Source: a bacterium
GTDB taxonomy: Bacteria > Vulcanimicrobiota > Xenobia > Xenobiales > Xenobiaceae
NCBI GenBank assembly: GCA_017444165.1
Contig: JAFSXH010000154.1
Coordinates: 1 to 45,125, forward strand
DNA length: 45,125 nucleotides
Direction of reading: 5' to 3'
Part shown: positions 3,034-18,153 of the stretch, piece after piece
How the letters are laid out: each line of letters begins with the position of its first letter
How positions within the stretch are numbered: the stretch's first letter is position 1
Position numbers and translations under genes: made by a program
The notes under the pieces: generated by a model
What the model was told of the DNA's origin: nothing
The model's database searches: none
The model's input: the letters and a program-made list of their open reading frames with translations, nothing else

Positions 3034-3864
3034 ATGTGCAGAAAACAGAATACTTTAAATAATAAGATAACCTTTATAGGTGTAGGCATCCACAGTGGCT
3101 GCAGAGCTGAAATGGTTGTTAAACCAGCTTCTGTTGATCACGGTATAGTATTTAAAAGTGCTGGGGAGTTGATCGAGGCATCCTATAAAAATGTCGTCTC
3201 TACCAAAAGATCGACAGTTTTGGGTAAAAATGGAATCCAAGTTTCGACTGTTGAACATTTTATGGCTGCTCTGTGGGCTTGTGAGATCGACAATGCTTTA
3301 ATTGAAATTGATGGGCCTGAGGTTCCTATTTTGGATGGTTCAGCTCTGCCATTTTGTCAAGAATTAAAAAAAGTTGGAGTCGTTTCACAAGATAAAGTCG
3401 CTACTGAAAGTTTTTGTCTGCAAGAACCTATCTTCGTCTCTGAAGGTGAGAGTTTGATCTTGGCTAGACCCGCCTCTAAATTAATTTTGGAGAGCGATGT
3501 AACTTATAAAAGTCCTCAAGTTGGCCACCAAATTTTCTCTTTCTGTGGTACGGGGGAAGAGTTTTGTACAGCTGTTGCTCCAGCCCGCACTTTTGGATTT
3601 TGGGCTGAAGTTAAAGATTTATTGGCTAATAATTTGGGTAAAGGCGGCAATTTAGATAACGCTCTGATCTTTGATCGTCCAGGTTTTAATCCTCAAAGTA
3701 TCTTGCGTTATGACAATGAGCCAGTGCGCCATAAAATGTTGGATCTTGCTGGTGATCTCAATCTTTTGGGAGTTCCAGTTAAGGCTCACATTTTAGCTAT
3801 AAGGGCTGGCCATAAATTGCACGTTGAATTTGTACGCAAAGTTGCCGAGGTGATAAACAGATGA
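3034..3864 (+). CDS. lpxC: UDP-3-O-acyl-N-acetylglucosamine deacetylase
   Basis: Motifs GVGIHSG, TVEHFMAAL, EIDGPEVPILDGSALPF, HKMLDLAGDL and GHKLH. Length 276 aa. Located within the lpx cluster. Confidence 0.95.
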   Translation: MCRKQNTLNNKITFIGVGIHSGCRAEMVVKPASVDHGIVFKSAGELIEASYKNVVSTKRSTVLGKNGIQVSTVEHFMAALWACEIDNALIEIDGPEVPILDGSALPFCQELKKVGVVSQDKVATESFCLQEPIFVSEGESLILARPASKLILESDVTYKSPQVGHQIFSFCGTGEEFCTAVAPARTFGFWAEVKDLLANNLGKGGNLDNALIFDRPGFNPQSILRYDNEPVRHKMLDLAGDLNLLGVPVKAHILAIRAGHKLHVEFVRKVAEVINR

Positions 3865-4229
3865 TCGATATTAAAGAGACTGCCTTTGTTGATAAAGTGG
3901 AAAATTTGGCTTTTCCTGTTGCTGAAGGGTACAAAAATATTACTGTAAATGAGCCGTATTTTGTGGGCCATTTTCCTGGTAATCCCATTATGCCAGGTGT
4001 TTTGCAGTTAGAGGCCTTGGTGGAGTTGGCCTGGTTCTTGTATGATTCTAAAGTGGAAATGGTTAAGGTAGTGCGTTTGAAATTTAGAAGGCCTGTGCGT
4101 CCTGGGGATCGCCTCGATCTCCATGTGGAAGAGACTGAACGTCAGGAAGATGTGGTTAGTGTAGCTGTGCGAGCTTCTGTGGATGGCGAGACTTCTTGTG
4201 AAGGTCTTGTACAATTTAAGCTAATGTAG
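3861..4229 (+). CDS. fabZ: 3-hydroxyacyl-ACP dehydratase FabZ (short N-terminus)
   Basis: NEPYFVGHFPGNPIMPGVLQLEAL hot-dog active-site motif. The ATGA overlap with the lpxC stop indicates translational coupling. Confidence 0.9.
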   Translation: MIDIKETAFVDKVENLAFPVAEGYKNITVNEPYFVGHFPGNPIMPGVLQLEALVELAWFLYDSKVEMVKVVRLKFRRPVRPGDRLDLHVEETERQEDVVSVAVRASVDGETSCEGLVQFKLM

Positions 4230-4281: not shown

Positions 4282-5223
4282 ATGGAGCCAGTACGGGTTG
4301 GGGTTATAGGTGTTGGAAGTATGGGCAAAAACCATGCGCGTGTGTGTGCATCTTTGCCTCAAATGGAACTAGTAGGCCTAGTTGATGTAGATGAGGCTAG
4401 AGTTCGTCCGATAGCGGAAGGTTACAATACCAATTATTATAGTGATTATCGAGAACTTTACGACAAAGTTGATGCCGTAGTGATCGTTTCACCTACCCCG
4501 CTCCATTATGAGATAGCTGCCGATTTTCTCCAACGCGATATACACGTCTTAGTAGAGAAGCCAATAACTGTCGATGTCGACCAGGCAAAAGGTCTGGTGG
4601 AGTTAGCTAAAGATCATCATTTGATCCTACAAGTAGGCCATTTAGAGAGATTTAATCCTGCCGTCATTAAGATGAAGAAGATCTTAGAAGAGCCGATGTT
4701 GATCGAATGTCATCGTCTCTCTGGTCCTACGACTCGAAATTTGGATGTAGGTATAATTTGGGATCTGATGATCCACGATTTTGATATACTTTTGAGCCTT
4801 TTAAAGTCGCCTGTGGCTTACGTACATGCTTTAGGAACGAGTGTTTACTCTCCCTTTGAGGATATTGCTCATGTGCAGATGCGCTTTAAAAACGGAGCCA
4901 TGGCTAGTTTAGTAGCCAGTCGCAATTCAGGTGAACGCAAGCGCAGTTTAAAGATTACCGAAAAGACGGGGCGCGTCTTGATGTTAGATTTTATTGAACA
5001 AAGTTTGACTATTTCTAGTCCTGGCCCCGATGGTCGTCCTTTGGATCCTGTGTCGGTACATATTGATAAAGAAGAACCTTTAGTTTTAGAACTGAAAAAT
5101 TTTGCTGAGTGTGTAGCTTTGCATAAGAAGCCATTAGTTTCTGGAGAAGATGGCAAGAGAGCTTTGGAATTAGCTATGCACGTTTTGAAAAATATGGACA
5201 TGAGAGAGGAGAAGCAGAGATGA
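4282..5223 (+). CDS. Gfo/Idh/MocA-family NAD(P)-dependent oxidoreductase (GnnA-like candidate)
   Basis: N-terminal Rossmann motif VGVIGVGSMGKNHA and the EKP motif (LVEKPITV). Length 313 aa. The stop overlaps the lpxA start (ATGA). Confidence 0.85.
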   Translation: MEPVRVGVIGVGSMGKNHARVCASLPQMELVGLVDVDEARVRPIAEGYNTNYYSDYRELYDKVDAVVIVSPTPLHYEIAADFLQRDIHVLVEKPITVDVDQAKGLVELAKDHHLILQVGHLERFNPAVIKMKKILEEPMLIECHRLSGPTTRNLDVGIIWDLMIHDFDILLSLLKSPVAYVHALGTSVYSPFEDIAHVQMRFKNGAMASLVASRNSGERKRSLKITEKTGRVLMLDFIEQSLTISSPGPDGRPLDPVSVHIDKEEPLVLELKNFAECVALHKKPLVSGEDGKRALELAMHVLKNMDMREEKQR

Positions 5224-6029
5224 TTCATCCTACTGCGGTTGTACATCCTAAGGCTAATATAGGTGAAGGTGTCAATATAGGTCCATTTTCAGTTATAGGT
5301 GAAAACGTAACCATAGGTGAGGGTACTGAGGTTATGTCCTCGGTGATTATTGATGGTTGGACTACTATTGGCAAAAACAACAGGATTTATCATGGGGCGA
5401 GTATAGGTTTAGCTCCTCAGGATTTCAGTTACAAGGGACAGCGGGCCTTTGTGGAGATCGGCGATAACAACGATATTCGTGAATATGTCACTATTCACCG
5501 AGCTGCCAATGAAGATGGTTTAACATATGTTGGCAGTGATAATCTCTTGATGGCTTATGTCCATGTAGCCCACAATTGCCACGTGGGCAATCAGGTCACT
5601 ATCGCCAATTACGCTGGTATGGCTGGACATACTGTAGTGGAAGATCAGGCTGTTTTGGGTGGTTTGGTCGGTATACATCAGCATACGCGCATAGGTAGGT
5701 TATGTATGATTGGTGGCTGTTCTAAGATAAATAAGGACATACCGCCTTTTAGTATAGTTGATGGCAATCCTTGTAGAATCTTCGGTATGAACTTCCGCGG
5801 TATGCGCCGACGCGGTATCGATCAGAAGAGTCGTTTGGCGGTGCAGACTGCTATTACCATTTTGGGCAGTCGCGGCTTGAACATTGATGAAGCCGTAGAG
5901 ACTATTTTGCGCGAGGTGGAGCAGACTCCAGAGGTTGTTCATTTGGTAGAGTTTATTAAAGGTTCTTCGCGTATGGGTATTCTCAATAAGGGCTGTGGTG
6001 TTGGTATTAGGGCTGGAGAGAACAATTAA
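5220..6029 (+). CDS. lpxA: Acyl-ACP--UDP-N-acetylglucosamine O-acyltransferase
   Basis: Aligns by eye along its full length with E. coli LpxA: IHPTAVVHP, VEIGDNN.IRE.VTIHR, VGSDNLLMAY.HVAHNC.VGN, GG...HQ and RRRG. Confidence 0.95.
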   Translation: MIHPTAVVHPKANIGEGVNIGPFSVIGENVTIGEGTEVMSSVIIDGWTTIGKNNRIYHGASIGLAPQDFSYKGQRAFVEIGDNNDIREYVTIHRAANEDGLTYVGSDNLLMAYVHVAHNCHVGNQVTIANYAGMAGHTVVEDQAVLGGLVGIHQHTRIGRLCMIGGCSKINKDIPPFSIVDGNPCRIFGMNFRGMRRRGIDQKSRLAVQTAITILGSRGLNIDEAVETILREVEQTPEVVHLVEFIKGSSRMGILNKGCGVGIRAGENN

Positions 6030-6120: not shown

Positions 6121-8544
6121 ATGGCGGAAGATAAAAAAAAGTTTTTAGTGGCTTTGACGGCTATCGATCCTTCTGCGGATATGCAGGGAGCGGTTTTAGT
6201 TAAGGCGTTGCGCGAGATAAATCCGAATATCGAGTTTGTCGGAATTGGTGGGCCGCAGATGGCCTCGGCAGGGGTAGATTTATGGCTTAAAACGATAAAT
6301 TCTGCTGTCATTGGGCCTGGTGAAGTTATTGTTCATTTGCCCGTTTATATACTCAATTATTGGAAGATCCGCAATAAACTTTTAGAAGTTCGTCCTGATC
6401 TTACGATCCTCATAGATTCACCTGCTGTCAATATGCGCTTTGCGGGTGTCTTGCGCCGCCATGGTTTAAATAGTGTTTATTATTTCCCACCATCAGCCTG
6501 GAGTAAGAGTGAAAAGCGGTTGCGCGACATCTTTGGACGCACAGATCGCGTTATCTGTGTTTTTGAGAGAAATGCTGAGAGTTATCGATGTTTAGGGATG
6601 GATGTTGATTATTGGGGCCACCCTATGAACGATATGCCTGAATTAAATTATACCCCTGAAGAGGCAAGAAAGAGGCTAGGGGTTGAGGGAGAGATTTTGG
6701 CTCTGCTTCCTGGCAGTCGTCAAGCGGAGATCGATAATTTGTTGCCTGTATTTTTGAAGACTGTGGAAATTTTGCACGCCGAGAGGCCGTCTTTGCAAGT
6801 TTTGATCCCTTGTGCTACTGAAGATCTGTCGGAAAAGATCCGCAGTTTAGTTCCTCAAAGTTGTGATTATATACGTTTAGTGGCGGGACAATCACATTGG
6901 GTGATGTTAGCTAGTCGAGCCGCACTTATGAGTTCGGGGACGGCTAGTTTAGAAGCTATGATGTTCAATTTGCCTATGGTTTTGTGTTATCGTTTTGGTT
7001 TGTTTAACGCCATTTTAGGAAAGTTTCTTTTGGCTACAGGTATATTAAAGGTCGATCATATTGGAGCTCCCAGTTTAATCTTAGATCGTCGCATTACTCC
7101 AGAATTTATTCAGGAGGAAGTTACACCAGAAAATCTAGTTCCCGCTGTACGCCAATATTTAGATGACACACCAGAGAGAAAGCAGATTTTGCAAGATCTG
7201 ACTTGGGCGCGTCAGAGTATGGGAGAGCCTGGAACGGTCAAAAAGATCGCCGCTTCTGTTTATAAACTTGTAGAGAAGTTTCATCAAGAACGTGAAAGTA
7301 AAAATATCGATGTGGTAATTACCTCCAATTCTCCAGGTGAAGTTTCTACTTGGGTAAAGCATACAGTTACAGCTTTAAAAGAGAGGTGTACTTCTGACCG
7401 TCTGCGTGTAGTTGTGGCTTTAGTTCCTTGTCCCTATGCTTCGGGGGCTGAGGAAGATGTGGCCAAGAGTATATCTGGAGTCGATATAGTTTTGACTCCC
7501 AGAGAGACGGTAAAGTTGGCTTTTCTGGGAAAATTGGAAAAGTATACACCTAACCATTTTGGGGTAGTTGTCTTTTTGGGCGGTGATCTTGCTCATGCGG
7601 CCATTCTGTCGTGTCGCTTGCATTACAAATCTATTGCTTATGCAGAACGCCACAATATATTGTTGCCGTTCTTTACACGCCTCTGTTCTGGTAACTTAGA
7701 TCTGCAGAACAGTTTAGTAAAAGATGGATATAAAAATGTAGACTACGTGGGCAACCTCTGTGTAGATGGTGTCAACGAGTGTGTCAAAACTTTTAAACAT
7801 GAGAGATCTGGCAAATGTGTTGGTATCTTTCCAGGATCGCGTTTTTTGCACGTTAAGGTATCTTTAGGTGTATTTTTGCGAGTAGCGGCCAGAATTAAGA
7901 GCTTAATGCCCCAGACGCGTTTTCTTATCTCTGTCTCTCCTTTTGTCTCTCAATTTAAGTTGAAGTCTGCGCTTTTGCGTCCCTTCTCGATGGGGTTGCC
8001 GACAGCAAAAGGTTATATAAAGGATAAAGATACTTTGCAAGTTGAGTGTGAAGATGAGCTCGAAGGATCGGCAGGTCGCTCCTTTGAGGTTGAGATATTT
8101 TGGGGTGAACCTTACAGAGCTATGGCTGAGATAGATATGGCTCTGACTATACCAGGTACGAATACAGGCGAGTTAGCTTGTTGTGGTAAGCCGATGGTGG
8201 TGGGGCTATCTAGTGCCGCTCCCTATCCACGCGGTGGTTTAGGTGGTTTGTTGGATAAGTTGCCAATAATGGAGAGCATTAAAAAATACCTGCGTCACAA
8301 GTCATACTTGCGTCAGGGATTTGCCGCTCAACCGAATCGAGTAGCTCAAAAGATGGTTATACCAGAAATTGTTGTCGGTCGGGATAGTTTAGTTTTGGCA
8401 GAACCAATTTTAGAATGGTTGAAAGATGAAGATAAGTGTCTGGCTAAAGGACGAGAGTTAAGTGAACTTATGGGCAATCTCAACGAGGCGGGGAGTAATA
8501 TTGCTAAAACGATATTGAATGTTTTGAATTTGAATGATGAGTAA
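6121..8544 (+). CDS. lpxB: Lipid-A-disaccharide synthase fused to a second LpxB-like (GT19-type) domain
   Basis: Residues 1 to ~385 look like canonical LpxB (SADMQGA.L...L, IDSPAVN, YYFPPSAW, LLPGSRQAEI, SGTASLEAM). Residues ~395-807 form a second domain with SNSPGEVSTW, IFPGSRFLHV and IPGTNTGELA, resembling LpxB-related proteins. Total length is 807 aa versus about 380 for LpxB. Confidence 0.85.
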   Translation: MAEDKKKFLVALTAIDPSADMQGAVLVKALREINPNIEFVGIGGPQMASAGVDLWLKTINSAVIGPGEVIVHLPVYILNYWKIRNKLLEVRPDLTILIDSPAVNMRFAGVLRRHGLNSVYYFPPSAWSKSEKRLRDIFGRTDRVICVFERNAESYRCLGMDVDYWGHPMNDMPELNYTPEEARKRLGVEGEILALLPGSRQAEIDNLLPVFLKTVEILHAERPSLQVLIPCATEDLSEKIRSLVPQSCDYIRLVAGQSHWVMLASRAALMSSGTASLEAMMFNLPMVLCYRFGLFNAILGKFLLATGILKVDHIGAPSLILDRRITPEFIQEEVTPENLVPAVRQYLDDTPERKQILQDLTWARQSMGEPGTVKKIAASVYKLVEKFHQERESKNIDVVITSNSPGEVSTWVKHTVTALKERCTSDRLRVVVALVPCPYASGAEEDVAKSISGVDIVLTPRETVKLAFLGKLEKYTPNHFGVVVFLGGDLAHAAILSCRLHYKSIAYAERHNILLPFFTRLCSGNLDLQNSLVKDGYKNVDYVGNLCVDGVNECVKTFKHERSGKCVGIFPGSRFLHVKVSLGVFLRVAARIKSLMPQTRFLISVSPFVSQFKLKSALLRPFSMGLPTAKGYIKDKDTLQVECEDELEGSAGRSFEVEIFWGEPYRAMAEIDMALTIPGTNTGELACCGKPMVVGLSSAAPYPRGGLGGLLDKLPIMESIKKYLRHKSYLRQGFAAQPNRVAQKMVIPEIVVGRDSLVLAEPILEWLKDEDKCLAKGRELSELMGNLNEAGSNIAKTILNVLNLNDE

Positions 8545-9121
8545 TAAACGAGAAATTTTTTTCCGCTACAGGGGAGCGATTATGGCTGTAGTGGCTTTAG
8601 TCGTCTTAATAGTGGCTTCTCCCAGCTTAAAGTCTTACTTAGCAGGTTTAATGTTGGGAATATTGGGCGAGTTGATCCGCGTTTGGGCCATTGGTTGGAC
8701 GGGCGAACACACTCGTGCTCAATCTCTGCGCGCACCGTTTTTAGTTACACAAGGTCCTTACAGTTTGGTACGCAACCCTCTGTATTTGGGCAATATTTTA
8801 AATTATTGCGGAGTGTTGCTGGCCGCAATTGGTTCTATGTCTGCGCTGGGAGCTGCTCTGCTTACTTTAAGCAGTGGTTTAATTATTTATGTGGTTTATT
8901 CTGGTTGTATCGCAGTGGAGGAGCAGTTTTTGCAAGAGCATTTTGGCGAGGCTTTCACGGCTTACAAAGATTCTGTGCCTCGTTTATGGCCCCATTGGCG
9001 AGATGTTATCAGCGGCGGGCAGTATGAATTTGCCTGGGAGCGAGTTAAATTTGAAGTCACGACCATATTTTGGTGGTTAGTGAGTTGGTCTGTTTTGCTT
9101 TACAAACTTTTGATGATCTGA
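8534..9121 (+). CDS. ICMT/PEMT-family membrane methyltransferase (LmtA-like candidate)
   Basis: Multi-TM protein of 195 aa. Motifs GPYSLVRNPLYLGNIL (the RHPxYxG-type motif) and VEEQFLQEHFGEAFTAYKDSVPR (the EE..L...FG..Y..Y motif). The start overlaps the end of lpxB. Confidence 0.75.
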   Translation: MMSNKREIFFRYRGAIMAVVALVVLIVASPSLKSYLAGLMLGILGELIRVWAIGWTGEHTRAQSLRAPFLVTQGPYSLVRNPLYLGNILNYCGVLLAAIGSMSALGAALLTLSSGLIIYVVYSGCIAVEEQFLQEHFGEAFTAYKDSVPRLWPHWRDVISGGQYEFAWERVKFEVTTIFWWLVSWSVLLYKLLMI

Positions 9122-10224
9122 GCCATACGTTCGGCTCCACCTGGAGGCCCCAGACGTTCCTTGCCAATATTAGCGCGGCGCAATCTATCTTCAGGATTGT
9201 TTATTAAGTTTGCTAAGGCTTCGATTATCTTTTCATCGTTATCTGGAGTAACAATGAGGGCTTCGCCTAAGAGTCCTTTTTGGCGGGTGCGATACCAGCG
9301 GAGATTTTGCGGATCTGCATCGTAGGCTATTACGGGTATACCCCAACCTGCCGCCTGCTCGTGAGCTGTGCCTGCCAAACCCAAAGCGACTTGGCTGTAT
9401 TTGAATACGTCAGCAATATGGCCTTTGATGAAGAATATACGCAGATTATCTTTAGTGTTATTTAATTGGAACCAGTCAGGATAATTCAGAGGTTTTAAAT
9501 TATCTGATCCCACTAATTTTTCTATTTCTATTGAGTGAGCTACGGCTACTAGGGCGCAGATCGGTCGTTCTAACTTTTGGGCAAATTTTTCGGAAAGCTG
9601 GAGAAGGCGGGGCATAACTTCATAAGTAGCTTGACGACTGCCTGGAAAGAGAGCTAGACCGATCTCGCCTGTTTTGAGCGTGAAGTTAATGTTTTGAGGT
9701 ATGAGGCCATCCATCATGGCGTTACCTACCCAAAGGGCTTTTACACCTTTTTGGCGCAAATCCTGAGCTGTGAGCTCATCACGAACTAGAGAGCGTACTT
9801 TTCCAAAACGCAAAATTAGTGATTCTAGATAAGAATAGGCGTGGTGATAATTAGATTTAGCCGTACCAATAAAAATGATAGGTCTAATTCCTGAAATAAT
9901 GCTGAGTACAACTGGCCAAAGATCGCCCACCGCCACAATTTTTGTATATTCATTTCTATTAGAACGCAACCAAAAGATCTGTTTTAAAATTAGTCCCAAG
10001 AGTCCATTTTGTAAATCTTGCCAAAAATTATTTAAGTTCTCTTTTATGAGACCACCACTAGGCATAACTTGACGGGGGCCGCAAAGTGGGGCTAGATCTC
10101 TGTAGGCCTCACCTTGGCCTACTAGTGGCATAACTTCGAGATCTACATCTTGTAAGTTACGAATTATCTGAGCGGCGATGGCATCTTCTCCCGCACCATT
10201 AGAAATAAATAAAATTTTGGACAT
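9100..10224 (-). CDS. LpxB-related glycosyltransferase (lipid-A-disaccharide synthase-related protein)
   Basis: ILFISNGAGEDAIA N-terminus and LFPGSRQATYEV (the same PGSR motif as LpxB). Length 374 aa. It resembles the stand-alone LpxB-related family I know from cyanobacteria. Confidence 0.7.
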   Translation of the reverse strand: MSKILFISNGAGEDAIAAQIIRNLQDVDLEVMPLVGQGEAYRDLAPLCGPRQVMPSGGLIKENLNNFWQDLQNGLLGLILKQIFWLRSNRNEYTKIVAVGDLWPVVLSIISGIRPIIFIGTAKSNYHHAYSYLESLILRFGKVRSLVRDELTAQDLRQKGVKALWVGNAMMDGLIPQNINFTLKTGEIGLALFPGSRQATYEVMPRLLQLSEKFAQKLERPICALVAVAHSIEIEKLVGSDNLKPLNYPDWFQLNNTKDNLRIFFIKGHIADVFKYSQVALGLAGTAHEQAAGWGIPVIAYDADPQNLRWYRTRQKGLLGEALIVTPDNDEKIIEALANLINNPEDRLRRANIGKERLGPPGGAERMAQIIKSL

Positions 10225-10230
10225 AATTTT

Positions 10231-10983
10231 CTAAACCTTAATTAATCGATGGGTGCTCCTCTCTGGATTATCAAAATCATAATCTAAAAGACCCACATAC
10301 TGACCATAACAACCAGTTTGTGTGATATATACCCCTTCTTTTTGGATAGGTTCTGATAAAGCTGTGTGGCTGTGTCCCCCTAAGATCCAAGTTCCTTTAG
10401 GCAGGCGAGGGGCTAACTCTAGATCTCGCTCTAAACCTAAATGGCTTAGGATCAGTATATTTTTGTTTTGGATAAATATCTTTTGTGCTAGTTTAGCTGT
10501 AGTTTCTATTGGATCGAAAAAACGAAATTTAAATATTTTCTCCCAAAAACAGTTATGACGATACTGTACGGGAGTAACTCCGATCAGCGTTAAATTTTCC
10601 ACGTTGATCGCCGCTGTCCAGCGTTTACGGATCTTGTTCTCTCGCCAATCTTGATAAGCGCGATCCACCAAGTTGGTACTGTCATCATTAGGGCATTCAT
10701 TCAGATCTGAGAGATTGCTACAGAGGAGGGGAAAATTTCTCTCTTCTGAGCGTATGTCCAGGACGCGTCGTTGGTAATTAAATTCGCGATTGCCCATAGC
10801 CATAGCTCGGCAACGGAGCTTATTCATTTTGTGTAAAATTGGCTCAGAACGGCGATAAATTGTGTTAGATCCTGCTAGAGCATCTCCACTGTCAACATAA
10901 ATATCTTTATCGGTTATGCTCCTAGTTAGCCAGAGAAGAGCCTCGTTGCAATTGTGCATATCATTAGTGTGATAGATCTGCAT
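10231..10983 (-). CDS. Calcineurin-like metallophosphoesterase, LpxH-sized, with a GNRE motif (candidate UDP-2,3-diacylglucosamine hydrolase)
   Basis: Motifs D8-x-H10 (HTNDMHN), G33-D34 (DSGDALAG), G64-N65-R66-E67 (MGNREFNY), LSH and GGHSH. Length 250 aa. It lies 6 nt upstream of the LpxB-related gene. Confidence 0.75.
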   Translation of the reverse strand: MQIYHTNDMHNCNEALLWLTRSITDKDIYVDSGDALAGSNTIYRRSEPILHKMNKLRCRAMAMGNREFNYQRRVLDIRSEERNFPLLCSNLSDLNECPNDDSTNLVDRAYQDWRENKIRKRWTAAINVENLTLIGVTPVQYRHNCFWEKIFKFRFFDPIETTAKLAQKIFIQNKNILILSHLGLERDLELAPRLPKGTWILGGHSHTALSEPIQKEGVYITQTGCYGQYVGLLDYDFDNPERSTHRLIKV

Positions 10984-10985
10984 AT

Positions 10986-11495
10986 TTATTTTGATTTAAC
11001 CGTCTGGGGAAGATCTTTAGCGATGGAGGGGAAGACGACTGAGGCGTAACCGATTAGCCAGAAAATACCAGCTACTAAAGGTGAACCTATCATGCAACCG
11101 ACTATTAAACCGATAATGCCTATACCCAAACTGGAGAGCATGATGCGCGGTTCTAAGAATATGGAGTAACCGAAAGAACCACCCAATATAGCTCCCACAA
11201 AACCGAAGGCCAACCCTTTGTTAAAGTCGGCAGTGTTAGTCGCCAGAGCCATACTAACTTTGGCTGCCTGCACTAAAGGTGAAGTGGAGTGACCAACATC
11301 AATGACGGAGTTAGCTCCCCACAAAAAACTCATAACCAAACCTAAAAAGGCAAAACCCATTATGGCCAGACGCTTTTGAGCTCCATCATCTTCAGGAGTT
11401 TCTGCGGAATTGTTAGCTACGTCGGTCGCCTCTTTTTGAGGAGCGGGATTGGCCTTTGCTAAACTCTTTTTTTTCTTATTACTGTTATTTGACAT
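10986..11495 (-). CDS. Small integral membrane protein with Gly-zipper-rich TM segments; function unknown
   Basis: Lys-rich cytoplasmic N-terminus followed by about four hydrophobic, Gly-rich segments (GFVGAILGGSFGY, GIGIIGLIVGCMIG). It sits between its operon neighbours with gaps of only 1-2 nt. Confidence 0.65.
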   Translation of the reverse strand: MSNNSNKKKKSLAKANPAPQKEATDVANNSAETPEDDGAQKRLAIMGFAFLGLVMSFLWGANSVIDVGHSTSPLVQAAKVSMALATNTADFNKGLAFGFVGAILGGSFGYSIFLEPRIMLSSLGIGIIGLIVGCMIGSPLVAGIFWLIGYASVVFPSIAKDLPQTVKSK

Positions 11496-11496
11496 A

Positions 11497-12456
11497 CTAT
11501 TCAGCCTTTTTTCTTATCTTTTGCCAATACTTTAAGGGAAGAGAACGCTGGGCAATCTTGCGCATATAAGCTTTGTGCATGATCGCGGGTTCCCCCGACC
11601 AGGTATTTTGACCAGCGGGAATATCCCCTTCCACAAGACTGCGGGCCGCTACTGTCGCAAAATCGCCAACTTTGGCCTCAGGTTGGAGCAAATTCTGTCC
11701 TGCCACTATGGATAGATTACCTGTTTGCGAATTCTCCCGCAGACAGGCTTGAGAGATCACTATAGCCAGAGGAGCAATATTTACGCCCTCTTTTATATTT
11801 ATGAGGTTATCTAAACGAGCTCCCGTACCTATTTGACAAGTATCGATCTGACAGCGTGCCCCGATCTCTACGTTGTCTCCTATTGTTGTCTTCGGTCCTA
11901 TATTAGTTAGAGCTCCTATTAAACATTTACGTCCTATTTGACAATCTTTTTTGATGTGTGCTCCAGCCAGAAGGCGGGTCTCCGCTCCTATGTGGCTGTT
12001 AGAGCCTACTTGAGCGTGGGCGTGTATTTCACAATGATCGCCAATATGAGCATCCTTCTCTATAATGGCATAAGGGCCGATGTAAGCGGTAGGTGAGATT
12101 GCAGCTGTAGGATCGACTATCGCCCGAGGATGAATCTGGGCTTCATAACGACGGCGGGGATAGAAGAGATCTAACAGTTGAGCAAAGGCCACGCGGGGAT
12201 TATCAACTGAGATCGTGGGAAATGTTTGTTCTATCTCTGTCAATTTATTAGAGATGACTATGGCAACAAAACCCAATTCTTTAGCTTTTTGATAAACTTC
12301 CAAATTGTCGGCAAAGGTTATAGTGTTGCTCAAATTGTGTCCGCAATTGACGGCATCTATACCAGTAATATCAGAGATCTCTAAATCATTAAACTCTTCG
12401 TTGAGGAGTTTACCAGAGATGTATTTGGCTAAGTCTTGTAATCTTTTTACCACCAT
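11497..12456 (-). CDS. LpxD paralog with the LpxD N-terminal domain and hexapeptide helix but a non-canonical active site
   Basis: The N-terminus aligns by eye with the E. coli LpxD uridine-binding domain (RLQDLAKYI, ITGID, ITFA, VDNPRVAFAQLLDLF). Hexapeptide repeats follow. There is no GFGY loop, and NIKEGVNIA sits where LpxD has QIAHNVVIG. Confidence 0.7.
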   Translation of the reverse strand: MVVKRLQDLAKYISGKLLNEEFNDLEISDITGIDAVNCGHNLSNTITFADNLEVYQKAKELGFVAIVISNKLTEIEQTFPTISVDNPRVAFAQLLDLFYPRRRYEAQIHPRAIVDPTAAISPTAYIGPYAIIEKDAHIGDHCEIHAHAQVGSNSHIGAETRLLAGAHIKKDCQIGRKCLIGALTNIGPKTTIGDNVEIGARCQIDTCQIGTGARLDNLINIKEGVNIAPLAIVISQACLRENSQTGNLSIVAGQNLLQPEAKVGDFATVAARSLVEGDIPAGQNTWSGEPAIMHKAYMRKIAQRSLPLKYWQKIRKKAE

Positions 12457-13769
12457 AATTGAGGATAATCACTCCAATTTTCTGTTGAATCGATAGTAGC
12501 TTCTTCAAAAATTAAATTTTTGGCCGCTAGAGGTACGGTTAAGGTACGTCCGTGCAAAAGCTGGTTGCGTCCTAAGCCGATAAGATCTTTACCTAATATG
12601 TCTTCGTATTTACCTCTGACTATGAACTGGGGAATACGACATATTGGCCGGCCATTTTTAAGAATAAAAGCTGTCTCAGCGCGACGGGCAAACTCACCTT
12701 TGTGCTTTAAATGAGGAGGCAGAGGGGTCAAGCGATCTAAGAAAACTCCGTAACCGACCTTTTCGCAGAGATCTCCAATTGAATATGGGCCTGCTTTGAG
12801 AGAAAGATTTGAGTAGCCAGGGTGAGGAGGAGCCCCCCAAGGACGAACAGCCAGACAAGAAGGGGGTAAATTGTTTAACTTGGCTGCACTCAAGTCGTAA
12901 AAACGATTTGATAATCTTCCATCTTCAATAATTGTCACTGGAACTTTGTTAAGTCCTTCGCCATCGAAAGGAACAGTTCCAAAACCTCCTGGTATTGTGC
13001 CATTGTCTTTGATAGTTATCTCTGGTGAGAGCCACTGTAATCCTTGAAGAGCTTCAGGTGGACAGGCAGAGTTTATGCGGAGTACGTCCATGGCGAAATC
13101 TTCTAAAAGTGAACCGCAAGCGTAATTGCTAAAAACTACGGGCAAAATGTAATTTTCTGGCCAGGCGATCTCTTCAGAAAGTATCGATCTCCAGGCTAAC
13201 AGGCAGAGCAACTCTGAGGGTGAGTGGTTGAGTGATGTTGAGTAGATATTAGCTCCCACAGGTATATCGTCACGAGAATTTAAAGAGAGCAGATGCAAAA
13301 CACGGTTGGCCGATCTCTGGCCCGCCCTGATCGTCAACTTCATTGTGTGTTGCAAGATACGGGCACTTATAGAGAAGCGTTTTTTAGGCAACATTGAAGG
13401 CAACATGAAATCTAACTCTTGCACGAAAGATTGCATTTTGTTTATAGATTCTTCTAATTGGCGGTTCATCTCTTCGCGTGTGCTGGTGTAAGGAGAAGAT
13501 ATGAAGCCTTTTTGTGAAAAAGAACCACTGGGGCCGGAACTTGCACTTTTTATGGCTAAAGTGAGGATCTCATCCTCAGACATTTCACCTTCAGACCAAG
13601 CGTACCCCAACTTGCCATCGATGTTGACTCTCAGACCAATACCCGAACGAAATCTCTGCTCTTCTGGTTTGGCTAAGTTTACCTCAGTATAAACTTCCTC
13701 ATCTATTTCCGCATCTCTGCATATGCCCAGAGTGCGCACGAGCAATTTACTAGCGTAACTGACCATCAC
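12447..13769 (-). CDS. TldD/PmbA-family protein (PmbA/TldE-like; no HExxxH)
   Basis: Motifs GKLGYAWSEG, FDGEGLNKVPVTIIEDGRL, GYGVFLDRL and GEFARRAETAFILKNG are typical of the family. Length 440 aa. No HExxxH motif is present. It overlaps both neighbouring genes. Confidence 0.7.
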   Translation of the reverse strand: MMVSYASKLLVRTLGICRDAEIDEEVYTEVNLAKPEEQRFRSGIGLRVNIDGKLGYAWSEGEMSEDEILTLAIKSASSGPSGSFSQKGFISSPYTSTREEMNRQLEESINKMQSFVQELDFMLPSMLPKKRFSISARILQHTMKLTIRAGQRSANRVLHLLSLNSRDDIPVGANIYSTSLNHSPSELLCLLAWRSILSEEIAWPENYILPVVFSNYACGSLLEDFAMDVLRINSACPPEALQGLQWLSPEITIKDNGTIPGGFGTVPFDGEGLNKVPVTIIEDGRLSNRFYDLSAAKLNNLPPSCLAVRPWGAPPHPGYSNLSLKAGPYSIGDLCEKVGYGVFLDRLTPLPPHLKHKGEFARRAETAFILKNGRPICRIPQFIVRGKYEDILGKDLIGLGRNQLLHGRTLTVPLAAKNLIFEEATIDSTENWSDYPQLWW

Positions 13770-14428
13770 TTTTCCTCAGGAGGAGAGATAACTAAAATTT
13801 GCAGAGGTATAAAATCGAACTTTCCTGCAGGGCAACAAGTATTTACATCATGTTCTGCTAAAGAAAACCCGTCTTGTAAATGGACTATCCAAGTATCTTC
13901 TAAATGGATATGCTTATGATAGACAAAGCCATTAATAGAGGCCCATTGTCTAAAAACTTTACGAGCAAATTCGCTGGAAGCTTTGACGGCTATAGTATCT
14001 AATCCCTGGCTTTCAGCTATACTTTGTAAACTCTCCAGTGCCAGAGAAGCTTCTCCTTTTTTAGCCTCAGAGAGATCCAAACCTGGATAGTTATTAAATT
14101 TGATCCTACTCCTAGTTTTTTTATAAACTCCTTGTAAAATAGCCTTTTGTAACTTTGGGTTAGATTGAGAATCGGCTTCTCTAGCTGATGGTAACACTTT
14201 ATAATCTTGCAAAATAACCGTAGATTCTGAATCTAGGTAGCGGCGCAAAGTTCCCTGCAGACCTTTAACCATAAAAGCCACAGGTATACCAGGTGCAAAT
14301 CTTTCCAGAGATACGTTCAACTGGCGACTATTTTTATCATAATCATGAGCCACAAAACGCAACCCTTCACCTGCAAAAGTATTTTGCAGTTTGTCTATGA
14401 TCTCTGTAACAGTGTATACGGGATTCAT
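13766..14428 (-). CDS. Hypothetical cytoplasmic protein
   Basis: A 220-aa ORF overlapping the downstream PmbA-like gene by 4 nt. It has no signal peptide, and I recognise no family. Confidence 0.55.
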   Translation of the reverse strand: MNPVYTVTEIIDKLQNTFAGEGLRFVAHDYDKNSRQLNVSLERFAPGIPVAFMVKGLQGTLRRYLDSESTVILQDYKVLPSAREADSQSNPKLQKAILQGVYKKTRSRIKFNNYPGLDLSEAKKGEASLALESLQSIAESQGLDTIAVKASSEFARKVFRQWASINGFVYHKHIHLEDTWIVHLQDGFSLAEHDVNTCCPAGKFDFIPLQILVISPPEEK

Positions 14429-14435
14429 TTACAGT

Positions 14436-15503
14436 TTACTTGTACTCTTCTTTTACAAAAGCTGTACCAGGATCAACCCTAGCAATTTTGTAAAATTCAT
14501 TCCACTCGTTTTCAAGTTTTTTAACTTTCTCTTTAGATACTTCTTTTTTCTTAAATTCTTCTTGAGCCTGTTTTTGGGCTTCGCTCAACAATTTTCCTCT
14601 AGCTGGATTCCAGAACTTAGCTCTAGCTACAGGATCATAGATGTTTTCTGAGTTGCGCAATCTTCCTAATTTCCTGTAAACGGTGTAACCTTTATCCAAA
14701 TAGAAGAGCGATTTGCTGGAAAGTGGATTCCACTTATATGATTGCCAAAGATAAGTTTCTGCGTAATCGAAATAATGTTCTGCAGAGTAATTGTTATCCG
14801 CCTGTCTTCCCAATGATATCTGATTGTAATAATATATACCAACCTGTAATTGAGCTTTTCCACTGGAGAAAAGATATTCAGAATAGATATATACACAACT
14901 CAACGTAATTAAAGTTAAAGGCAGAATGATGAAAACAAATATATTGAAGATACGCATGGGCCAAGTGGCGTTGGTCCAAAGCTTCTCTTTTCTGCTCTTA
15001 CCTACAGATATTCTCTCTTTGGCTGTGTAGTAATCTTGTTTAATAGTGGCCGCAGTTTTAGAAGCTAGAGCGCGAATTTTGGGAGTAAATTTGCCAGAAG
15101 AGGAAATTTTGTAACATATGTCTATGGCGACTTCTGCAAAACCTGCATGACCCAATTCCTCCGCCGTCATAAGCCAATCTTCCGGGTCTGTTTCCTCCAC
15201 ACTTCTGACGCAATTGCCGAAGCGAATGCTGTCATCAACCTCTAGAGCCTTGACAAATTGTATGGCCGCTTTCTCAGGTTCCCCCATAGCTACCGCACAT
15301 ATTCCTAAACCGAAAAGAGCATTAATATCATTGGGAAATCTCTTTAGACTATTTAAGAGATCAAAATTCAATTCGTTAAAACGTTGCTCTTTAAATAACT
15401 GTAACTGTTCATCTGTAAATATCTCTGACAAAGACGCAGTTGTTTTGTCAACTACGGGAGGTTGTACCTGTATAGTATTTTGGGGAGGAAGGTTGAGGCT
15501 CAA
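14436..15503 (-). CDS. Membrane protein with a TPR-like N-terminal region and a Lys/Glu-rich C-terminus
   Basis: A 355-aa ORF and the first gene of the minus-strand operon. TPR-like helices (ALFGLGICAVAMGEPEKAAIQFVKALEVD) and one clear TM segment (IFNIFVFIILPLTLITLSCVYIY). Confidence 0.55.
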   Translation of the reverse strand: MSLNLPPQNTIQVQPPVVDKTTASLSEIFTDEQLQLFKEQRFNELNFDLLNSLKRFPNDINALFGLGICAVAMGEPEKAAIQFVKALEVDDSIRFGNCVRSVEETDPEDWLMTAEELGHAGFAEVAIDICYKISSSGKFTPKIRALASKTAATIKQDYYTAKERISVGKSRKEKLWTNATWPMRIFNIFVFIILPLTLITLSCVYIYSEYLFSSGKAQLQVGIYYYNQISLGRQADNNYSAEHYFDYAETYLWQSYKWNPLSSKSLFYLDKGYTVYRKLGRLRNSENIYDPVARAKFWNPARGKLLSEAQKQAQEEFKKKEVSKEKVKKLENEWNEFYKIARVDPGTAFVKEEYK

Positions 15504-15611
15504 TTTTTATTCGCTCCAGGTAAAATGGAAAGCACCCGCTTTGACATTAGATAGTTATACCCTTCTTAGCTGAAATAGAGGAAAACTAAGCACTCTTAAA
15601 AATAAAAAATC

Positions 15612-16286
15612 ATGTGCGTATCGTTCAGAAAATGTTGGGAATTGTCAAAAATTTTAGGATTAATATTTATCTTTTTGTCCTTAGAAGGATGTCCCCAGAT
15701 AAAAGATGACAAGACAAAAATGGAAGAGCAAGAGAGGGCAGAAAAAGAGAGAGTTTCTGTAGAGAGTGATTCCACTAGAGTGGAAGATAAGATTAATGAT
15801 GTTGTCACTAAAGTTGAAGAAGTTAAAGACTCTCTTCAAAGCAATTACGGAAAACAGGAAGTAAATTCTCTTTCTCTCAGTGCCAAAGGGGACACTCCCT
15901 GGGACTTAAAAGCGGACAAAATTGATTATGATGACAATTCTAAACGAGCCAGGGCTTCAAAAATAGTTTGGAATTTATTGGATAAAGATGGTAATTCGCT
16001 TTTAGAACTTAGCGGCGATGCAGCTGTAGTCAACGTGCCTACCCAGGGAATAGCTTTCGAAGGGCCAGTGCAGGCAAAGGGAGCGCACGGAGAGGAAATT
16101 ACCTGTCAAAAACTAGTTTGGGATAGTAAAAATCGCCAATTGCATGGCTCTAACGGTGTAAGAGTCGTCAGAGAAGGCTCAATTATGACAGGAAGAGAGA
16201 TGATCGCCTCTCCAGATCTCAAACGCGTGGAAGTCAAGGGGGATGTGCGTGTTTCTTTTACGGCTAATCCTCTGAAAAGTGAGTAA
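15612..16286 (+). CDS. LptC/LptA-like (OstA-fold) LPS transport protein
   Basis: N-terminal hydrophobic anchor or lipobox-like LSLEGC. Beta-rich C-terminal part (LKADKIDYD, LSGDAAVV, VWDSKNRQLHGSNGVRV, VEVKGDVRV). Located immediately upstream of lptB. Confidence 0.55.
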   Translation: MCVSFRKCWELSKILGLIFIFLSLEGCPQIKDDKTKMEEQERAEKERVSVESDSTRVEDKINDVVTKVEEVKDSLQSNYGKQEVNSLSLSAKGDTPWDLKADKIDYDDNSKRARASKIVWNLLDKDGNSLLELSGDAAVVNVPTQGIAFEGPVQAKGAHGEEITCQKLVWDSKNRQLHGSNGVRVVREGSIMTGREMIASPDLKRVEVKGDVRVSFTANPLKSE

Positions 16287-16291
16287 TATTT

Positions 16292-17026
16292 GTGTCTATT
16301 GAAATTGACAGTTTAGTTAAAAGTTTCAAAGACCGTCGCGTCGTCGATGGCGTTAGCTTGAAGGTTGAACCTGGTGAAGTGGTTGGCCTTTTAGGATCGA
16401 ACGGGGCTGGTAAAACCACTACTTTTTACATGGTTGTAGGTTTGATAAAACCGAACAGTGGCCGTATTATTCTCAATGGGCAGGATGTGACTAATTTCCC
16501 CATGCATCAGAGAGCGCGTTTAGGGATAGGTTACTTACCTCAAGAATCTTCGGCTTTTCGTAAATTGAGCGTTGAAGATAACTTGCGTTTACTTTGGGAA
16601 GTTAATGGTGTGAGCAAGGTCGAACAGAAGGAGCGATTGGAGTCTCTTTTGGAGGAGTATCAGCTCTTTAAGGTACGCAAGAGTAAAGCTATTGAGCTTT
16701 CTGGTGGAGAGCGCAGACGTTTGGAAATAGCCCGTTCTTTAGCTATCAAACCCCAATTTTTGCTCTTGGATGAACCCTTTTCTGGTGTCGATCCTATAGC
16801 TGTGGCCTCCATACAAAATATAATTCGCAAGTTGAAGAAGAGCGGTTTGGGAATATTGATAACCGATCATAATGTTCGCGAGACTCTGGCTATAACTGAT
16901 AGAGCTTATATAATTCGGGAAGGGCATATCTTGGTCTCTGGCAGTGCCGTCGAGATTGCCAATAATCCAGATGCTCGCAAGTATTACTTAGGTGAGTCTT
17001 ACCAGACAGGATTTGAGAACTCATGA
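16292..17026 (+). CDS. lptB: LPS export ABC transporter ATPase
   Basis: GTG start. Walker A GSNGAGKTTTFY, Q-loop YLPQE, signature LSGGERRRLEIARSLA, Walker B LLLDEP, H-loop ITDHN. LptB-type C-terminus ARKYYLGE. Confidence 0.9.
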   Translation: MSIEIDSLVKSFKDRRVVDGVSLKVEPGEVVGLLGSNGAGKTTTFYMVVGLIKPNSGRIILNGQDVTNFPMHQRARLGIGYLPQESSAFRKLSVEDNLRLLWEVNGVSKVEQKERLESLLEEYQLFKVRKSKAIELSGGERRRLEIARSLAIKPQFLLLDEPFSGVDPIAVASIQNIIRKLKKSGLGILITDHNVRETLAITDRAYIIREGHILVSGSAVEIANNPDARKYYLGESYQTGFENS

Positions 17027-18153
17027 AGATTATTGATCGTTACATCATGCTGGAAATGGCTGGTCCCTTTCTCTTTGGGGTCTGTGCCTTCACCCTTTTG
17101 TTCTTTTCGGCAGAGACTTTAATGGGCGTAGCCAAGATGATCTTAGAGTCTCAAGCGGGGGCGGGAATGGTCGTCAAGTACCTCTTTAATCGTCTGCCTT
17201 ATGTCTTAATTATGACCTTTCCCATGTCTACACTTTTGGGAGCCTTGATGGCCTACGGAAGGTTATCTGGAGATAGTGAAATTGTGGCCCTAAAAGCTGG
17301 TGGAGTTGGCTTTTTGCGTATATTTATGCCTGGATTTATCTTCTGTTTGGTGATCTCTATGATCTCATTGGCTATAAATCAATATTGGGTTCCTCCAGCC
17401 ACTAAGCAGGCGTACAGTATGGTTTTAGAATTACGAGCTCCCGATCAGATCGAGAGGGCTTTGATAACTTCTCCGCGTCTGTTATCTAACGGTGAAGAGC
17501 AGATGATTTACGCTCACGTTCTCAATGTCAAAGAGCAGACGATGAAAGGTGTCTATGTTCATTTTTTCTTAAACAATAAGCGCGTGCGTGAGTTGTACAC
17601 TCAAGAAGCGCGTTGGAATAAGGAAAAGCATGTCTGGGAGGTTCTCAATTTGGAGGCGCGGGAGTTTGACAAAGATAGCGGCCAACTGCGTTATGATGTT
17701 AAAGGCAGTGATGGTTGGAGTCCTATGACTAAAACAGATTCCCCTGCCAGTCCCGATCAATTAGCCCAACGCAAATTGCGTCGCGAAGAGATGACTAGTC
17801 AAGAGCTGGCTAATTATCTGAATTCTTTGCCTCCTATAGGTAAGACTAATCCAGACGAGTACCGCAAGCGCAACAAATATATTGTTATGTACTATCAAAA
17901 GGTTTCTTTGCCTATGACCTGTTTAGTATTTGGTGCTTTCGCCGTGCCTTTAGGACTCAGGCCTCAGCGCACTAGTACTTCTATAGGTTTTGGTCTTTCG
18001 TTATTCTTCATTTTGCTCTATTATGTACTCATGACTATCGGAATGATGTTGGGTGAGAATGGCACGGTGGCCGCTTGGTTTGCTGCTTGGCTCCCTAATA
18101 TTGTCTTTGCGATAGTAGGAACATTTTTAGTTATAGACGCTTCACGCAAATAG
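17023..18153 (+). CDS. LptF/LptG-family LPS export permease
   Basis: YjgP/YjgQ-type N-terminus (IIDRYIMLEMAGPFLFG), six TM segments with a large periplasmic insert, and an ATGA overlap with lptB. Confidence 0.85.
   Translation: MKIIDRYIMLEMAGPFLFGVCAFTLLFFSAETLMGVAKMILESQAGAGMVVKYLFNRLPYVLIMTFPMSTLLGALMAYGRLSGDSEIVALKAGGVGFLRIFMPGFIFCLVISMISLAINQYWVPPATKQAYSMVLELRAPDQIERALITSPRLLSNGEEQMIYAHVLNVKEQTMKGVYVHFFLNNKRVRELYTQEARWNKEKHVWEVLNLEAREFDKDSGQLRYDVKGSDGWSPMTKTDSPASPDQLAQRKLRREEMTSQELANYLNSLPPIGKTNPDEYRKRNKYIVMYYQKVSLPMTCLVFGAFAVPLGLRPQRTSTSIGFGLSLFFILLYYVLMTIGMMLGENGTVAAWFAAWLPNIVFAIVGTFLVIDASRK

Follow-up and report, generated by a model that had tools for sequence, protein, structure and literature searches.

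Which enzyme supplies lipid X to LpxB when a lipid A gene cluster encodes none of the hydrolases known to form it? This question is raised by contig JAFSXH010000154.1 (GenBank assembly GCA_017444165.1) of a Xenobiaceae bacterium from the phylum Vulcanimicrobiota/Eremiobacterota, which was analysed over positions 1 to 45,125 of its forward strand, a stretch referred to here as the window. Since a canonical LpxB is encoded in this window, and LpxB requires lipid X according to the established Raetz pathway, the cluster needs a lipid X-forming hydrolase. The candidate, encoded on the minus strand (10231..10983), is a predicted stand-alone cytoplasmic metallophosphoesterase (MPE) of 250 residues, which is of the UshA/5'-nucleotidase N-terminal domain (N-domain) type and carries a GNRE variant of the third superfamily motif. 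A first-pass annotation of the window had proposed it as an LpxH-type enzyme and as the missing UDP-2,3-diacylglucosamine hydrolase. The part of this proposal that concerns the LpxH family had to be given up, but MPE stands as a strong functional candidate, its link with the lpx cluster being upheld by comparative genomics. Our preferred reading of the sequence data, to which we assign a probability of roughly 0.6, is that, in the lipid A pathway of Eremiobacterota, MPE acts as the UDP-2,3-diacylglucosamine pyrophosphatase, or acts on the equivalent UDP-2,3-diacyl-2,3-diamino-2,3-dideoxyglucose (GlcN3N) substrate in the GnnA-bearing lineage. As a functional analogue, it would join LpxH, LpxI and LpxG after a separate recruitment from the UshA/5'-nucleotidase branch, and it is the best candidate for a fourth enzyme class at the 'LpxH step'.

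Family assignment of the metallophosphoesterase

The open reading frame of MPE starts with an ATG at 10983 and its stop codon ends at 10231, as the sixth of seven genes in a tightly packed operon that runs along the minus strand from 15503 to 9100. Two nucleotides separate the stop codon of the upstream gene from this ATG, and six separate its own stop codon from the ATG of the downstream gene (10224). A protein database search returned 192 proteins at E≤1e-3, the best of them at E=1e-122 and 72% identity, and the sole Pfam match, Metallophos, reached 32.8 bits (cutoff 21.5), so MPE is a genuine conserved gene and not a chance open reading frame. The public gene call for the same frame (P0001), which has no precomputed Pfam domain, is 242 residues long, that is, 8 residues shorter, implying a start at Met9 that leaves out window positions 10960-10983. 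Because such a start would remove the invariant metal ligand Asp8, and since the alignment of homologues agrees with the longer form, we consider the 250-residue start at 10983 to be the correct one. A promoter and terminator scan of positions 8900-15700 was uninformative, with promoter-like sites below shuffle expectation and terminator-like sites barely above it.

To place MPE we used an alignment, and the profile built from it (A1), of 34 MPE homologues with identities down to 29%. Twenty positions are invariant in it, namely, D8, H10, D31, G33, D34, E47, P48, G64, N65, R66, E67, P85, N90, H181, G183, D187, G202, G203, H204 and H206, which include all seven metal ligands and the arginine of motif III. 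Motif I (D8-M9-H10, 10954..10962, in the context MQIYHTNDMHN) provides the ligands that correspond to D41 and H43 of UshA; motif II (G33-D34, 10882..10887, in VDSGDALAG), the bridging ligand that corresponds to D84; motif III (G64-N65-R66-E67, 10783..10794, in AMGNREFNY, with codons ggc aat cgc gaa from 10794 to 10783), the ligand N65, aligned with N116; motif IV (H181, 10441..10443, preceded by L179-S180), the ligand that corresponds to H217; and motif V (G202-G203-H204-S205-H206, 10366..10380), the ligands aligned with H252 and Gln254, the latter being replaced by His206. The binuclear site is therefore intact, as the first-pass annotation had stated, and its readings of the 250-residue frame, of each motif it listed, of the GNRE codons and of the 6-nt gap to the downstream gene were likewise accurate. 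What has changed with respect to UshA, throughout the family, is the catalytic dyad His117-Asp120 (GNHEFD), which became Arg66/Asn69 (GNREFN) in MPE.

Sequence and structure comparisons all led to the same family. First, the NCBIfam matches of MPE are UshA, SoxB and CpdB-type models, which describe N-domains of the 5'-nucleotidase group, all scoring far under their cutoffs. Second, the single MPE sequence retrieved from the PDB 5'-nucleotidases, UshA and their relatives only, and the A1 profile matched E. coli UshA at E=2.7e-31 over the entire N-domain (profile positions 2-237; UshA residues 8-291 aligned). Third, an AlphaFold model of high confidence (pLDDT 97.2, pTM 0.94) had as its top 50 Foldseek neighbours N-domains of 5'-nucleotidases, UshA, CD73 and NadN exclusively, with TM scores of about 0.7 (2z1a, E=1e-15, TM 0.72). 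MPE ends where the UshA N-domain ends, and the C-terminal nucleotide-binding domain (C-domain) is missing. In essentially all homologues motif I begins at residues 5-10, so close to the N-terminus that no place is left for a signal peptide, and no hydrophobic N-terminal segment was found in any of the 34 aligned sequences; hence, MPE is predicted to be cytoplasmic. By sequence and by predicted fold, MPE is thus assigned to the UshA/5'-nucleotidase family as a stand-alone N-domain. The first-pass annotation had named best scores against nucleotidase families as a sign against its proposal, and such scores were obtained. Nevertheless, this is a weak criterion: of the characterised relatives, UshA is the nearest, and its own activity is that of a UDP-sugar pyrophosphatase, which cleaves UDP-sugars into UMP and sugar-1-phosphate.

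The opposite assignment, MPE as a divergent but true member of the LpxH family, draws on the GNR[D/E] motif, on a length of about 240-250 residues and on motifs I, II and V being found at similar positions. We dropped it and regard it as refuted for practical purposes, given that MPE shows affinity with LpxH in none of the searches made. No LpxH model was found among its NCBIfam matches at E≤0.01; no LpxH chain was retrieved from the PDB at E≤10, either with the single sequence or with the A1 profile, though the library holds many LpxH structures; and no LpxH appeared in the Foldseek top 50. A direct hhalign comparison of the MPE family with E. coli LpxH, whose query sequence was validated against PDB 8qjz, gave a probability of 2.7% (E=0.017), with the superfamily motifs alone being aligned. 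The claim that the motifs sit at LpxH-like positions is accurate for motifs I, II, III and V but not for motif IV (H181 here, H114 in LpxH), since the large insertion of MPE separates motif III from motif IV, as it does in 5'-nucleotidases, and that of LpxH separates motif IV from motif V. In MPE, the interval from H181 to H204 amounts to 23 residues and contains one helix in the model, and neither alignment nor model shows in this interval the LpxH-type helical cap, for which the first-pass annotation had suggested looking. Likewise, the length of the protein, which had been read as a sign of LpxH, arises from its being the N-terminal domain alone of a 5'-nucleotidase-type enzyme.

One segment of MPE was considered as an LpxH-like lipid-binding cap in its own right. 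Alignment gaps and model secondary structure delimit a helical insertion at about residues 94-120 (10624..10704, minus strand; helix 102-114), which is longer in the relatives from gut Xenobia and absent in the class Eremiobacteria. Being lineage-specific, it was rejected for this role.

The arginine of motif III

If the family is that of UshA, the arginine in motif III calls for an explanation of its own. In the hhalign comparison the GNREF of MPE aligns on the GNRDF of LpxH, and R66 is positionally equivalent to Arg80 of LpxH. The structure paper on Pseudomonas aeruginosa LpxH (PaLpxH) reports that, among metallophosphoesterases, the histidine of motif III is replaced by arginine 'only in LpxH', and that this arginine binds, by a salt bridge, the phosphate of lipid X; the helical insertion of that enzyme comprises residues 119-173. 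On the reality of this arginine and its equivalence to that of LpxH, the first-pass annotation was supported.

How the residue is distributed among the relatives of MPE suggests where it came from. A profile hidden Markov model search of 1.84 billion representative sequences yielded 1549 MPE relatives at E≤1e-30, and in the best 150 of them GNRE is present in all short stand-alone proteins and GNH[D/E] in all long multidomain ones. Because the long relatives retain the histidine, the His-to-Arg change is convergent, having arisen independently in a metallophosphoesterase lineage different from that of LpxH.

Conservation of the gene neighbourhood

To assess the genomic context of MPE we surveyed one genome per GTDB species, examining neighbourhoods of about 20 kb. 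An MPE relative is encoded in 309 species genomes, and the statements that follow refer to the 80 best loci among them. Their titles are mostly those of Vulcanimicrobiota/Eremiobacterota, from the classes Xenobia/UBP9 and Eremiobacteria, with a minority of other submitter labels, which are unverified. Closest to the window, with 44-48% identity, are loci of gut Xenobia, Ca. Bruticola among them. With respect to gene content, the MPE gene of these 80 loci is part of the lpx cluster; lpxB is found within 5 kb of it in 55 out of 57 loci, lpxA in 53 out of 57, and in every locus with enough downstream sequence (68/68) the next gene downstream on the same strand encodes a protein of family TIGR03492, referred to as T03492. 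This order is kept across classes of the phylum at about 33-48% protein identity. For instance, a locus from the class Eremiobacteria (L050) reads bamA, three skp genes, lpxD, lpxC, fabZ, lpxA, lpxB, MPE, T03492, a WaaL-like ligase gene, lptC, lptB and lptFG, with overlapping stop and start codons between lpxB and MPE, between MPE and T03492, and between T03492 and waaL.

The coupling of MPE with T03492 was further confirmed in two ways. A reverse check that started from divergent T03492 homologues found a GNRE-type MPE directly upstream or fused in five of five cases. In addition, two natural MPE::T03492 fusions were found, P0168 (640 residues, GC-rich type; L081 5314-7236), which is encoded in a conserved cluster of lpxA, lpxB, an LpxB-like gene termed X and a PEMT-family methyltransferase gene, and P0259 (650 residues, AT-rich type), and in these the C-terminus of MPE runs straight into the 'LFxSNGxGED' N-terminus of T03492. 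Because the two are very different from each other in sequence, a single assembly artefact is an unlikely source of the fusion.

This conservation bears on the simplest reading of the family assignment, namely, that MPE is an ordinary cytoplasmic nucleotidase or UDP-sugar hydrolase with housekeeping functions, whose place among lpx genes is incidental. Its best profile, sequence and fold matches are indeed nucleotidases, and public annotations of its homologues include '5'-nucleotidase' and '2',3'-cyclic-nucleotide 2'-phosphodiesterase', besides 'metallophosphoesterase' and 'hypothetical protein'. However, an incidental neighbourhood is hard to reconcile with synteny that persists across classes at such low protein identity, with overlapping codons in the operon and with two independent fusions; moreover, of the traits that define bona fide 5'-nucleotidases and UshA, MPE has kept neither the catalytic dyad nor the C-domain for nucleotide binding nor the signal peptide. 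We therefore regard a housekeeping role as very unlikely.

The partner protein T03492

The first-pass annotation had taken the gene downstream of MPE to be of the LpxB type, and so to encode the enzyme of the next step. This identification was rejected. The gene (9100..10224, minus strand) encodes a TIGR03492 'LpxB-related' protein of the GT-B fold (272 bits), loosely similar to LpxB, with a weak sequence match at E=0.002, and the canonical LpxB is encoded on the other strand (6121-8544). The AlphaFold model of T03492 has a confident GT-B fold (pLDDT 92.7), whose nearest structures according to Foldseek are UDP-GlcNAc 2-epimerases and UDP/TDP-sugar glycosyltransferases (TM 0.55-0.6). From its sequence and model, T03492 would be best described as a UDP-sugar-binding protein.

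Constant adjacency and occasional fusion, in an N-to-C order that is the same as that of the two domains of UshA, raise the possibility that T03492 may supply the substrate-binding function missing from the lone N-domain of MPE. Taken one step further, the two proteins could form a composite UDP-diacylglucosamine hydrolase, sometimes fused, in which the GT-B protein binds the UDP-lipid in place of the UshA C-domain and presents its pyrophosphate to the arginine-bearing metal centre, as the signature of a 'short' lipid A pathway in Eremiobacterota that lacks LpxK and Kdo (3-deoxy-D-manno-octulosonate). We consider this elaboration unlikely as it stands and offer it tentatively. If true, the composite enzyme could show how 'four-enzyme' lineages, for example cyanobacteria, which also have TIGR03492 proteins, make the acceptor for LpxB.

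The same coupling can be turned to a different end, in that MPE and T03492 could act together at another step of lipid A or lipopolysaccharide (LPS) synthesis. The candidates are removal of the 1-phosphate from lipid X or from the disaccharide 1-phosphate, leading to a phosphate-poor lipid A as in 'four-enzyme' lineages, or hydrolysis of the UDP or UMP that LpxB or T03492 sets free, which would pull these reactions forward. In agreement with this, the strictest linkage of MPE, in all 68 loci and in the fusions, is with T03492 and not with LpxB; T03492 resembles a GT-B enzyme that binds UDP-sugars, from which release of UDP would be expected; enzymes of the UshA family are also phosphomonoesterases; and the clusters show no LpxK or WaaA, which recalls cyanobacteria, whose LPS is free of phosphate and Kdo. 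However, the pathway would then keep a canonical LpxB and still be without an enzyme that forms lipid X, and the replacement of the His-Asp dyad by arginine mirrors the sole metallophosphoesterase known to act on the pyrophosphate of UDP-2,3-diacylglucosamine. Furthermore, hydrolysis of nucleotides in this family normally needs the C-terminal domain, absent here, and an LmtA-like methyltransferase encoded in Xenobia clusters hints at a 1-phosphate that is retained. On balance, we see a role at a different step as a possibility worth keeping in mind, if a somewhat unlikely one.

Lipid A genes not found in the window and related loci

That MPE serves as the UDP-2,3-diacylglucosamine pyrophosphatase depends in part on which other genes are present. 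Family-model searches found no match to LpxH, LpxI, LpxG, LpxK or WaaA among the open reading frames of the 45-kb window, so that for the three hydrolases the first-pass annotation was borne out within this locus; nor does MPE itself contain a DUF1009/LpxI domain, Metallophos being the only Pfam domain found in it. A tblastn search with E. coli LpxH gave nothing better than E=3.8 in 1.45 Mb, made up of the window and related loci. According to Opiyo et al., lpxI is found between lpxA and lpxB, and lpxH outside the clusters. In 70 loci, no more than 348 bp separate the neighbouring genes lpxA and lpxB, so lpxI is absent from its canonical site.

A similar pattern extends to later steps. No LpxK or WaaA was seen in the L050 super-operon of the class Eremiobacteria, where a WaaL-like O-antigen ligase (Wzy_C, L050 11883-13091) directly follows T03492. 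Such an absence resembles, by analogy, the Kdo-less pathway of the 'four-enzyme' lineages described by Opiyo et al., namely, Cyanobacteria and Dictyoglomi, which have an lpxD-lpxC-fabZ-lpxA-lpxB cluster but are without LpxH, LpxK and WaaA; these authors also argued for 'multiple gene recruitments' at the lipid X-forming step. In reviews up to 2025-2026, LpxH, LpxI and LpxG are the only enzymes named as catalysing it. In the library searched, no paper ties Eremiobacterota to lpxH, refers to TIGR03492 or relates UshA-type enzymes to UDP-diacylglucosamine, and none was found that describes the MPE family. Vulcanimicrobium alpinus, the cultured member of the phylum, is a Gram-negative bacterium whose outer membrane is covered by LPS and in which iso-3-hydroxy fatty acids are abundant, and WPS-2 genomes reportedly encode the synthesis of LPS. 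Supplementary material to the V. alpinus paper contains no mention of lpx genes.

Proposed reaction and its implications

With these elements, a reaction scheme for MPE as the UDP-2,3-diacylglucosamine pyrophosphatase can be proposed. A binuclear centre, probably of Mn2+, is held by D8, H10, D34, N65, H181, H204 and H206, as their invariance and the UshA alignment show. By analogy with the chemistry of UshA and LpxH, this centre would activate a water molecule for attack on the alpha-phosphate of the UDP-linked lipid, giving UMP and lipid X. Arg66, taking the place of the transition-state histidine, may clamp, neutralise and position the leaving group, the sugar 1-phosphate with its beta-phosphate, much as Arg80 does at the equivalent position of LpxH. 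The reaction would take place at the cytoplasmic face of the inner membrane, and the lipid X formed would then pass to the LpxB encoded in the same cluster. Because MPE is without the nucleotide-binding C-domain of UshA, recognition of the substrate and closeness to the membrane probably depend on T03492 and, in Xenobia, also on the small membrane protein encoded upstream.

Several observations weigh against this proposal. First, the default activities of the family are those of a nucleotidase and a UDP-sugar hydrolase. Second, the tightest coupling of MPE is with T03492, so the pair could serve a different step of LPS synthesis. Third, the absence of lpxH, lpxI and lpxG applies to the 45-kb window and to about 1.4 Mb of neighbourhoods of some 20 kb, that is, to parts of genomes. 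Fourth, MPE has no counterpart of the helical cap between motifs IV and V with which LpxH holds the acyl chains, and this makes the binding of a diacylated substrate by a soluble N-domain hard to account for. Fifth, there is a divergent subgroup of short GNRE proteins (AGNLG...GNRE[S/T/A]H) outside lpx clusters (L083 8001-8774, L084 1353-2126, L085 1101-1862 and L086 2673-3413), which adjoins a PMT_2/DUF8201 GT-C membrane glycosyltransferase and a GT2 enzyme, or DUF3866. We accordingly rejected the notion that GNRE is in itself diagnostic of an lpx enzyme, this GNRE[S/T]H subgroup having no lpx linkage; its members may act on another lipid-linked pyrophosphate substrate.

What is new here is a candidate fourth class of enzyme for a known reaction, with computational support that we consider strong. 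Lipid A synthesis cannot proceed without the lipid X-forming step, three non-orthologous enzymes are already known for this step, and one of them, LpxH, is an active antibiotic target. If our proposal is correct, a His-to-Arg grip on the sugar-1-phosphate of a UDP-lipid evolved twice, in this case from the UshA/5'-nucleotidase lineage. It would also complete the pathway map of Eremiobacterota, a phylum widespread in soil and gut that includes the gut-associated Xenobia; correct a systematic misannotation of its members as '5'-nucleotidase', 'cyclic-nucleotide phosphodiesterase' or 'hypothetical'; and open a way into the poorly understood lipid A pathways of Terrabacteria that do without Kdo and LpxK.

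Organization of the lipid A locus

By its gene content the window can be identified as a lipid A and outer-membrane locus. Its plus strand opens with skp, which is followed by lpxD (464-1168), a conserved gene for a 600-residue protein (1230-3032), lpxC (3034-3864), fabZ (3861-4229), a gene for a GnnA-like UDP-GlcNAc 3-dehydrogenase (4282-5223; NF040723, 267.6 bits, under the cutoff of 450), lpxA (5220-6029), an lpxB fusion (6121-8544) and a gene for a PEMT/ICMT-family methyltransferase that is weakly LmtA-like (8534-9121; TIGR04571, 58.8 bits, cutoff 325). Further along the same strand are lptC (15612-16286), lptB (16292-17026) and lptF/G (17023-18153). The 600-residue protein has no significant family match (weak DUF3370, E=4e-4); it is conserved in Xenobia-type clusters, with its gene again placed between lpxD and lpxC, at 42-65% identity and missing from those of the class Eremiobacteria. 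The methyltransferase gene and the T03492 gene are convergent, and their 3' ends overlap by 22 nt (9100-9121).

The lpxB product is an 807-residue fusion of LpxB with a degenerate LpxB-like domain, the X part mentioned above. Canonical LpxB spans about residues 10-380 (TIGR00215, 261.7 bits, cutoff 190), and the X half gives a Pfam LpxB match of 27 bits at residues 271-305 of the C-terminal half. LpxB and X are separate adjacent open reading frames in five loci (L009, L020, L081, L082 and L087), and yet another locus, L088, encodes X as a fusion with the PEMT methyltransferase instead. Counting T03492, Xenobia-type clusters have three GT19/LpxB-like paralogues.

Upstream of MPE, the minus-strand operon encodes a small membrane protein of 169 residues with hydrophobic segments and no Pfam match (10986..11495), and a second LpxD-like acyltransferase of 319 residues (11497..12456; NF002060, 180.6 bits, cutoff 207), as well as a TPR protein, an unannotated gene and a PmbA/TldD-like protein of 440 residues. 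The reading frames of the LpxD-like and PmbA/TldD-like proteins, which together occupy 11497-13769 of this strand, overlap by 10 nt, and both genes recur near the cluster in other Xenobia loci. At least 15 Xenobia-type loci have a homologue of the membrane protein at this position, and unannotated open reading frames that resemble it are seen in L020, L081 and L087; the membrane protein may tether MPE to the membrane.

Two of these genes hint at the kind of lipid A that would be made. LmtA is the methyltransferase of the lipid A 1-phosphate, and the presence of GnnA-like and LmtA-like genes hints, on sequence grounds, at a lipid A similar to that of Leptospira, built on GlcN3N and methylated at its 1-phosphate, a feature that the literature does not record beyond Leptospira (PMC10248169). 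The window showed no GnnB aminotransferase, and the GnnA-like and LmtA-like genes are absent from the clusters of the class Eremiobacteria.

The locus also holds three families that we take to be mainly cyanobacterial, DUF3084, DUF3370 and TIGR03492. In this non-cyanobacterial window they are represented by a DUF3084 gene (18158-19117, plus strand), by the weak DUF3370 match of the 600-residue protein on the same strand, and by T03492. Their presence fits a gene set for envelope biogenesis shared by Eremiobacterota and Cyanobacteria.

Comparison with known enzymes

Four enzymes provide the terms of comparison for MPE. The first is LpxH of beta- and gamma-proteobacteria (PDB 5B49, 8QJZ), which shares with it the metallophosphoesterase superfamily, the binuclear metal site, the arginine of motif III, the cytoplasmic location and a size of about 240-250 residues. 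However, LpxH carries its helical cap between motifs IV and V, whereas MPE has some 115 residues between motifs III and IV, as is typical of 5'-nucleotidases; in addition, lpxH is found outside lpx clusters and the MPE gene within an lpx operon.

The second comparison is with UshA and the 5'-nucleotidases, including CD73 (PDB 1USH, 1HP1, 2Z1A), which are the closest relatives of MPE by sequence and fold and have all of its metal ligands conserved. UshA is a periplasmic enzyme with a signal peptide and a C-terminal domain, in contrast with MPE, which is predicted to be cytoplasmic and is linked to lipid A genes. In the active site, His117-Asp120 and Gln254 of UshA stand against Arg66, Asn/His69 and His206 of the MPE family.

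The two remaining enzymes catalyse the step proposed here for MPE, and both were identified by complementing an E. coli lpxH-depletion strain. LpxI (DUF1009), known from Caulobacter crescentus, is likewise encoded in the lpx cluster by lpxB, but its fold and mechanism are unrelated, and it attacks the beta-phosphate. LpxG of Chlamydia trachomatis (Ct461) is set apart from MPE, going by its published description, by a GNHD motif and an N-terminal transmembrane helix, where MPE has GNRE and no such helix. No sequence relationship between the two was detected, a direct comparison not having been run. Nevertheless, LpxG also belongs to the metallophosphoesterase superfamily and was recruited independently to act on UDP-2,3-diacylglucosamine in a lineage without LpxH or LpxI, and thus it provides a precedent for a further class of the kind that we propose for MPE.

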